This document shows positions 48,334-48,516 of a stretch of 64,000 nt of DNA, in pieces; the stretch's first letter is position 1; the number at the start of each line of letters is the position of its first letter. The translations under genes were made by a program, and so were the position numbers. The notes beneath the pieces were generated by a model that was given only the letters and a program-made list of their open reading frames with translations, was not told the origin of the DNA and did no database searches. This DNA is from Escherichia coli (GTDB lineage Bacteria > Pseudomonadota > Gammaproteobacteria > Enterobacterales > Enterobacteriaceae): NCBI RefSeq assembly GCF_030384885.1, contig NZ_CP128613.1; one strand, given 5' to 3'.

Positions 48334-48516
48334 GCCGGATGCGACGCTTGCCGCGTCTTATCCGGCCTACGGGATTGCACATGTAGGGCGGATAAGGCGT
48401 TTACGCTGCATCCGCCAGTGGCGCGGTGCAATTGCCGGATGCGACGCTTGCCGCGTCTGATCCGGCCTTCGGGATTGCACATGTAGGGCGGATAAGATGT
48501 TCACGCCGCATCCGCC
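48334..48516. repeat. BIME/REP array: two ~83-bp near-identical direct copies, each containing REP palindromes
   Basis: gccggatgcgacgcttgccgcgtct.atccggcc..cgggattgcacatgtagggcggataag...catccgcca occurs at 48334 and again at 48434 (period 100 bp) with a handful of mismatches. Confidence 0.85.

Follow-up and report, generated by a model that had tools for sequence, protein, structure and literature searches.

The repeat that separates eutG from eutH in the 64,000-nucleotide stretch of Escherichia coli DNA analysed here (the window; contig NZ_CP128613.1 of assembly GCF_030384885.1) is an ordinary BIME-2 array that had been catalogued before and is polymorphic as usual, and nothing in its identity is new. 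We assign a probability of roughly 0.8 to the reading according to which it is a BIME-2 orthologous to the K-12 element REP178, with hairpins that would act on the eut mRNA as mild regulators, the element itself being largely a dispensable passenger.

Two direct copies of 88 nt each (48330-48417 and 48430-48517), 92% identical and with a start-to-start distance of 100, were detected by repeat search, and Tandem Repeats Finder delimited the array at 48333-48517 with a period of 100, 1.9 copies, 92% matches, 0 indels and a score of 328. Both searches bear out an earlier note on this DNA, which had described two near-identical tandem units at 48334-48516, i.e., with coordinates correct to within one base. 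The period of 100 bp given there also stood, while the unit length of about 83 bp is better stated as 85 nt (the two palindromes and the linker between them), followed by an inter-unit linker of 15 nt. The copies run head-to-tail and occupy most of the 216-nt eutG-eutH spacer, which is the only long gap in the 17-gene eut operon; the array is wholly extragenic, lying between the eutG stop (48331) and the eutH start (48548). Chance does not come near to explaining the repeat, the expectation for a REP-type pattern being 0 matches according to 100 shuffled versions of the window. On the plus strand, the unit is laid out as a 38-nt palindrome (TGCCGGATGCGACGCTTGCCGCGTCTTATCCGGCCTAC) with CTAC at its end, a 12-nt linker (GGGATTGCACAT), a 35-nt palindrome (GTAGGGCGGATAAGGCGTTTACGCTGCATCCGCCA) with GTAG at its start, and a 15-nt linker (GTGGCGCGGTGCAAT). 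The coordinates of the individual features are collected in the Table.

Table. Features of the eutG-eutH region, in positions of the window.
Feature	Position	Strand	Basis
eutG coding sequence, TAA at 48329-48331	47144-48331	+	ORF list; RefSeq annotation of NZ_CP027579, identical over this stretch
Whole BIME-2 array, two units of 100-bp period	48333-48517	+	repeat searches, Y/Z2 assignment, REP178 orthology
Unit 1 Z2 palindromic unit, iREP orientation, CTAC at end	48333-48370	+	naRNA4 alignment, fold -22.8 kcal/mol
Unit 1 tail-to-tail linker GGGATTGCACAT, 12 nt, at the position of the BIME-2 S linker	48371-48382	.	sequence; definition in PMC3333891
Unit 1 Y palindromic unit, REP orientation, GTAG first	48383-48417	+	naRNA4 alignment, fold -19.3 kcal/mol
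Inter-unit head-to-head linker GTGGCGCGGTGCAAT, 15 nt	48418-48432	.	aligned to the naRNA4 'l' linker with a 4-nt insertion
Unit 2 Z2 palindromic unit	48433-48470	+	sequence, fold -22.3 kcal/mol
Unit 2 tail-to-tail linker GGGATTGCACAT	48471-48482	.	sequence
Unit 2 Y palindromic unit, private GC-to-AT change (AAGATG)	48483-48517	+	fold -12.0 kcal/mol
eutH translation-initiation region, conserved; Shine-Dalgarno AGGGAG at 48534-48539	48518-48547	+	sequence, cross-species spacers
eutH, in-frame TAG at 49436-49438 (W297*), also G173S	48548-49774	+	comparison with the nearest genome

The assignment of the array to BIME-2 follows from the alternating orientation of its Y and Z2 units and its tandem repetition, both of which fit the published definition; its linkers, at 12 and 15 nt, are short. 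According to this definition, a z2 and a y unit joined by a short S linker occur in tandem copies, the number of which varies among strains, and the linkers differ in length and sequence (PMC3333891). The Rfam model naRNA4 (RF02564; Y-l-Z2) matched positions 48386-48467 of the plus strand with 70.1 bits (gathering score 59.5), placing its Y hairpin at 48386-48417 and its Z2 hairpin at 48433-48467, with one extra base in the loop and a linker longer by 4 nt. Both types recur in each of the two units, and their alternating orientation in this alignment upholds the earlier description of the unit as a REP-containing BIME. The long-loop unit we take to be Z2 and not Z1, an assignment which also leans on the published consensus sequences. 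REPs are defined as imperfect palindromes of 30-40 nt with a conserved GTAG at the 5' foot and a mismatch in the stem (PMC3333891), and the four units of the window, all of which fold as bulged hairpins, agree with this. Three of them have the tetranucleotide, or CTAC on the plus strand; the Z2 of unit 2 has CTTC instead, and thus has lost the complement of the GTAG required by the REP transposase.

Comparison with the neighbouring classes sharpens this placement. BIME-1 elements (RIP/RIB, consisting of Y and Z1 with an IHF-binding L linker) share with the eut element the inverted REP pair and the extragenic position. This class was rejected, as the linkers measure 12 and 15 nt with no long L linker among them, the long-loop Z2 replaces Z1, the repetition is tandem, and the IHF core motif WATCAANNNNTTR had no match on either strand of the spacer. 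With REP325/naRNA4, the BIME-2 situated between yjdM and yjdN, the eut element has in common the alternating Y and Z2 units, the head-to-head linker and the co-oriented flanking genes; it differs in possessing four palindromes and a 15-nt head-to-head linker, whereas REP325 possesses 12 palindromes and an 11-nt one, and in a G:C pair in the Z2 stem where the naRNA4 consensus has U:A. Of these two elements, terminator and stabiliser effects have been demonstrated for REP325 only, with Rho dependence confined to its full-length array. Finally, inverted REP pairs, GTAG/CTAC and the stem mismatch, which are the determinants of TnpA-REP binding and cleavage, are shared with REPIN/RAYT systems, the REP doublets of which are mobilised by the TnpA-REP transposase, although CTAC is missing from one of the four eut palindromes.

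In K-12 the orthologous element is listed as REP178 (2568140-2568322, 183 bp, NC_000913.3), a 'Tandem' REP between eutG and eutH (supplementary table of a 2026 preprint), and the location in the eutG-eutH spacer proposed in the earlier note is therefore that of a catalogued tandem-gene-pair REP. The genome of K-12 MG1655 has the same 216-nt spacer with the same two 100-bp Z2-linker-Y-linker units, and its inter-unit linker is identical to that of the window; the two arrays differ by 10 substitutions (approximately 94.6% identity over 185 nt). For practical purposes, both a lack of synteny with REP178 and a grouping of the palindromes outside Y and Z2 are excluded. Both Z2 stems read CCAGCC in K-12, leaving a stem mismatch, versus CCGGCC in the window, where, besides CTTC for CTAC in unit 2, both Y units carry private changes, that of unit 1 being C-to-T (CGCTGC). 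The haplotype of unit 2 of the window, TCTGATCCGGCCTTC, is found as the single unit of one-unit strains and also as the last unit of a four-unit strain, while the two units of K-12 share a different signature, CCAGCC. Given these distinct haplotypes, sequence comparison suggests that the two-unit state may have arisen separately, more than once. The RefSeq feature table of MG1655 contains no REP feature at eutG-eutH, the supplements of the RepRanger paper do not mention eutG or eutH, and a literature search on eutG, eutH and REP returned nothing specific to the eutG-eutH element.

The number of units at this site was surveyed using a query composed of the flanks only (400 nt of eutG and 400 nt of eutH) against 5,426 complete genomes, of which 5,410 were matched and 5,393 showed the two flanks linked at a single site. 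Of the 5,411 E. coli records, 60 taken at even spacing were sorted by spacer length, and one locus per class was read out. Two units (216 nt) were present in 24 of the 60 records (40%, 95% interval 28-53%), and one unit (116 nt) in 19 (32%, 95% interval 20-45%). Three (316 nt), four (416 nt) and five units (515/516 nt) occurred in 3, 2 and 4 records, respectively, or 15% combined. The loci read out for the classes of 116-516 nt consist of 1-5 exact 100-bp units; the variation in copy number between strains, anticipated in the earlier note together with a comparison across E. coli as the way to check it, was thus observed as spacers of 116, 216, 316, 416 and 516 nt, in steps of 100 bp. Four further records (7%) contained a truncated single unit (99 nt) without the 5' half of Z2, and hence without the stop-codon-proximal hairpin, three (5%) an unrelated dispersed repeat with no REP (169 nt), and one a spacer split by an IS30 insertion.

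In the sample, two units are carried by K-12 and ST131 and three by C41(DE3), a BL21 derivative; a single unit is present in the O111 strains and in EM06-18-14, an isolate from chicken meat. The 99-nt spacer was seen in three O157:H7-type genomes (including NE1127) and in one unserotyped clinical isolate, and the IS30 insertion in one O157:H7 genome, E. coli O157:H7 493/89. The 169-nt spacer (e.g., in E. coli NRZ14408; 265 records at an identity of at least 99%) holds an unannotated 138-nt G+C-rich inverted-repeat element with GGGGAGAGGGTTAGGGTGAGGGG. The replacement repeat is in turn a dispersed one, found at a median of 15 places per genome, and probably resembles the 'box C' repeat.

In other species, a degenerate pattern of the eutH start located the junction in 33 species representatives, and the spacer was extracted from 31 of them. 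Among these 31 spacers, 'empty' ones of 27-32 nt, comprising essentially just the ribosome-binding region, were found in five Citrobacter, one Pluralibacter and one Yokenella. One REP is present in S. enterica diarizonae and C. sedlakii, one head-to-head REP pair (119-123 nt) in many Citrobacter and in Pseudocitrobacter, and Klebsiella species have spacers of 194-216 nt with Klebsiella-type palindromes. Within Escherichia, the number of units is one (E. whittamii), three, about five or about six. The occurrence of empty sites, single REPs, REP pairs and arrays across genera identifies the eutG-eutH junction as a long-standing spot of REP landing or retention, a history with which several insertions and one rearranged old insertion both fit. 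The arrays of two divergent Escherichia, namely Escherichia sp. MOD1-EC7003 (about five units) and 'E. coli' SCPM-O-B-8794 (about six units), start with a truncated Z2. Four of the five Y units of MOD1-EC7003 share a compensatory change in the stem, from C:G to T:A (GGGTGGAT…ATCCACC), and at the sequence level this points to concerted evolution or to recent amplification within the array.

When folded as single units, all four palindromes of the window yielded bulged hairpins, the energies of which are given in the Table in their order along the array. Relative to shuffled controls, three of the four had z values of -4.2 to -5.5 and the fourth, the Y of unit 2, a value of -1.8, its hairpin being weakened by the GC-to-AT change in the upper stem, which is absent from every other allele examined. 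In the minimum-free-energy fold of the whole spacer RNA, the two Y units paired with each other over a long range instead of forming four local hairpins; this pairing was treated as an artefact of repeated palindromes, and the single-unit folds were preferred. The first stem starts at 48334, 2 nt past the eutG stop codon, and the final hairpin ends 30 nt upstream of the eutH ATG, so the Shine-Dalgarno sequence stays outside the hairpins. Across 24 distinct units from 11 alleles, 97.6% of stem cells were paired. Stem covariation amounted to one compensatory pair, matched by 157 of 500 shuffles and thus not above controls, and is uninformative because the units are 97% identical. Within the spacer (48332-48547), neither an intrinsic terminator (a hairpin followed by a T-run, the longest T run being 3) nor a sigma-70-like promoter was found, and hence no internal eutH promoter was seen.

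Effects on mRNA stability and operon polarity, which the earlier note raised, are a property of the REP family as a whole. Judging from the behaviour of this family, the four palindromes would fold into stable hairpins on the polycistronic eut mRNA. There they would chiefly block 3'-to-5' exonucleases and so protect the eutS-to-eutG message, with at most a mild attenuation into eutH-eutR. As the first hairpin lies immediately behind the eutG stop, terminating ribosomes would probably stall and the output of EutG would decrease. Intercistronic REP stabilisers are known at malE-malF and hisJ-hisQ, where they can hold up 3'-to-5' decay and increase the upstream product relative to the downstream one. 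Like the eut element, these REP hairpins are located inside an operon just after a gene, but the levels of Eut proteins in K-12 lack a marked drop downstream of the BIME. A REP that follows a stop codon at a distance of less than 16 nt stalls ribosomes and so lowers translation of the gene upstream (Liang et al. 2015, as cited in PMC12306157), and the distance of 2 nt found here is well within the corresponding spacing of up to 15 nt. In the case of REP325, a BIME-2 of 12 palindromes, the upstream gene is stabilised and the downstream one attenuated, and genome-wide the tandem gene pairs separated by REPs display a raised upstream/downstream expression ratio (bioRxiv 10.64898/2026.03.23.713779).

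K-12 strains carry the same two-unit allele as the window, and proteomic values for K-12 W3110 are 27 for EutE, 10 for EutD and 7 for EutG, encoded upstream of the array, and 37 for EutB, 24 for EutC and 39 for EutL, encoded downstream (PMC11334477). Any polarity or attenuation must be weak, since EutB, EutC and EutL are at least as abundant in K-12 as the Eut enzymes encoded upstream. The low value of EutG (7) versus EutE (27) is compatible with stop-proximal damping, though no proof of it. Changes in copy number would most likely come about when the 100-bp units slip or recombine unequally, or else by the activity of TnpA-REP; recombination mediated by the latter has been shown in vitro for other BIMEs (PMC3333891). 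The dispensability of the element is indicated by the approximately 7% of E. coli with a truncated unit and 5% with a different repeat, and by the empty sites in several Citrobacter, Pluralibacter and Yokenella. Taken together, our analysis presents the element as what appears to be a mildly regulatory, largely dispensable passenger, as opposed to a device dedicated to control.

Against any regulatory role stands a serious alternative, which we regard as a real possibility: the array would be selfish or neutral repeat DNA, a passenger in the only roomy gap of the eut operon, with its copy number drifting by slippage and eut expression not measurably affected. Polymorphism in both presence and copy number without a fixed state agrees with it, as do the empty sites in some related species, the approximately 5% of E. 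coli with an unrelated dispersed repeat, the one O157:H7 genome with IS30, the abundance of the downstream Eut proteins in K-12, the non-significant stem covariation (among units 97% identical) and the degenerating private mutations in the hairpins of the window. It is harder to reconcile with the fact that Escherichia, Salmonella, Citrobacter and Klebsiella all have their own REP types at eutG-eutH, which suggests targeting or retention, with the family-level bias of REP-separated tandem genes towards the upstream gene, and with the position, just 2 nt behind a stop codon, of a -22.8 kcal/mol hairpin, which is unlikely to go unnoticed by ribosomes. The own REP types of the four genera could even reflect selection for a hairpin 'insulator' setting the ratio of eutS-G to eutH-R, with the number of units (0-6) as a heritable dial of the lineage, an idea that strikes us as improbable. 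The eutS-G half of the operon holds mostly shell and cofactor-recycling genes, and the eutH-R half the transporter, lyase, shell and regulator genes.

Three further explanations of the element were considered. At the DNA level, it could be a gyrase binding and cleavage site relieving supercoiling in the 17-gene operon, or take part in HU/naRNA nucleoid contacts: strong gyrase binding was reported for BIME-2 (Espeli and Boccard 1997, as cited in PMC2817692), condensation of DNA in concert with HU has been proposed for REP325 and naRNA4 (PMC4550694), and the element scores above the Rfam threshold on the naRNA4 model. We consider such a role unlikely, for a range from absence to at least five units is hard to square with a required topological function, and in a 2026 re-examination REP325 had no effect on nucleoid volume and HU-dependent REP-REP contacts were not found (bioRxiv 10.64898/2026.03.23.713779). 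That the array is a Rho-dependent terminator or polarity site splitting eutS-G from eutH-R seems very unlikely. BIMEs can indeed give Rho-dependent attenuation (Espeli et al. 2001, as cited in PMC2817692 and PMC12306157; also REP325), and the 216-nt gap is untranslated. REP178 is among the REPs overlapping or near in-vitro Rho-binding peaks, but these peaks are on the strand antisense to eut (supplement of a 2026 preprint). Moreover, Rho would load poorly on a spacer as rich in G+C and as nearly completely base-paired as this one, and fragments of REP325 with 2-4 hairpins are insufficient for Rho-dependent termination, for which the full array is needed, and are not sensitive to bicyclomycin, a Rho inhibitor. 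The abundance of EutB, EutC and EutL in K-12 despite the same two-unit allele argues in the same direction.

An independent small-RNA gene of the naRNA4 (CssrE) family, to which the above-threshold RF02564 match might be taken to correspond, is scarcely credible. The naRNA4 model represents one Y-l-Z2 segment of the REP325 array (PMC4550694) and recognises any pair of Y and Z2 REPs with a linker, as it does in another BIME of the window (89 bits) and on the opposite strand at the eut site (46 bits). The match spans the junction of two units inside the operon transcript, no promoter-like site accompanies it, and the locus is eutG-eutH, whereas the HU-binding naRNA4 belongs to REP325 (yjdM-yjdN). 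The small-RNA reading was rejected on the generic nature of the model and the absence of a promoter-like site. A BIME-2 array with mildly acting hairpins remains the reading that we prefer.

The surroundings of the array in the source strain deserve separate consideration. The names eutG and eutH come from the RefSeq annotation of E. coli 2013C-4282, the nearest genome, which is 100% identical over 1,051 nt and differs from the window at 5 of 13,051 nt, two of these differences being located in eutH. Codon 297 of eutH is TAG in the window and TGG in 2013C-4282, which confirms the interruption of eutH pointed out in the earlier note; the other difference is G173S (at 49064). By its sequence, the ethanolamine transporter gene eutH has probably become a pseudogene recently in the source strain, and tuning of downstream expression may for this reason be moot there. 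The eut operon, aside from the nonsense codon in eutH, looks intact. The eutA and eutB genes are adjacent (ORFs 49771-51174 and 51186-52547), and the cryptic prophage CPZ-55, which splits the operon in K-12 MG1655, is absent.

The two flanks of the array differ in their affinities. Over its last 400 nt (47932-48331), eutG reaches no more than 94.2% identity with eight other E. coli alleles, and the first 400 nt of eutH (48548-48947) are up to 99.0% identical to some of the same strains; the flank-only search gave an identity of at least 99% in only 3 of 5,411 records. Such disagreement in ancestry across the BIME points to recombination with a boundary within or close to the element, or else to a rare allele of eutG.

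Other repeats are present elsewhere in the window. A second REP pair, at 23582-23658 on the minus strand just after an ORF ending at 23571, scores 89 bits on the naRNA4 model and is single, not tandem. Between the convergent genes ypfG and tktB (34917-35028), REP arms have been amplified separately into micro-tandem repeats, with two copies of a 19-nt unit and four to five of a 14-nt unit, GCATCCGGCAATCA. The length of the ypfG-tktB spacer varies among E. coli, the matched spans being 333-381 nt for a 381-nt query; the spacer of the window is the longest seen, and only 2 records match it at an identity of at least 99%.

In E. coli, the family to which REP178 belongs is the most abundant of all repeat families, and for a BIME-2 a variable number of copies is textbook behaviour. 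As for ethanolamine use in the source strain, the nonsense codon in eutH outweighs the repeat. In a wider context, the eutG-eutH junction offers a natural allelic series in a well-studied inducible operon, with empty, truncated, one- to six-unit, replaced and IS-hit states, which could be used to learn how mRNA decay, read-through and stop-proximal translation respond to the number of REP hairpins.
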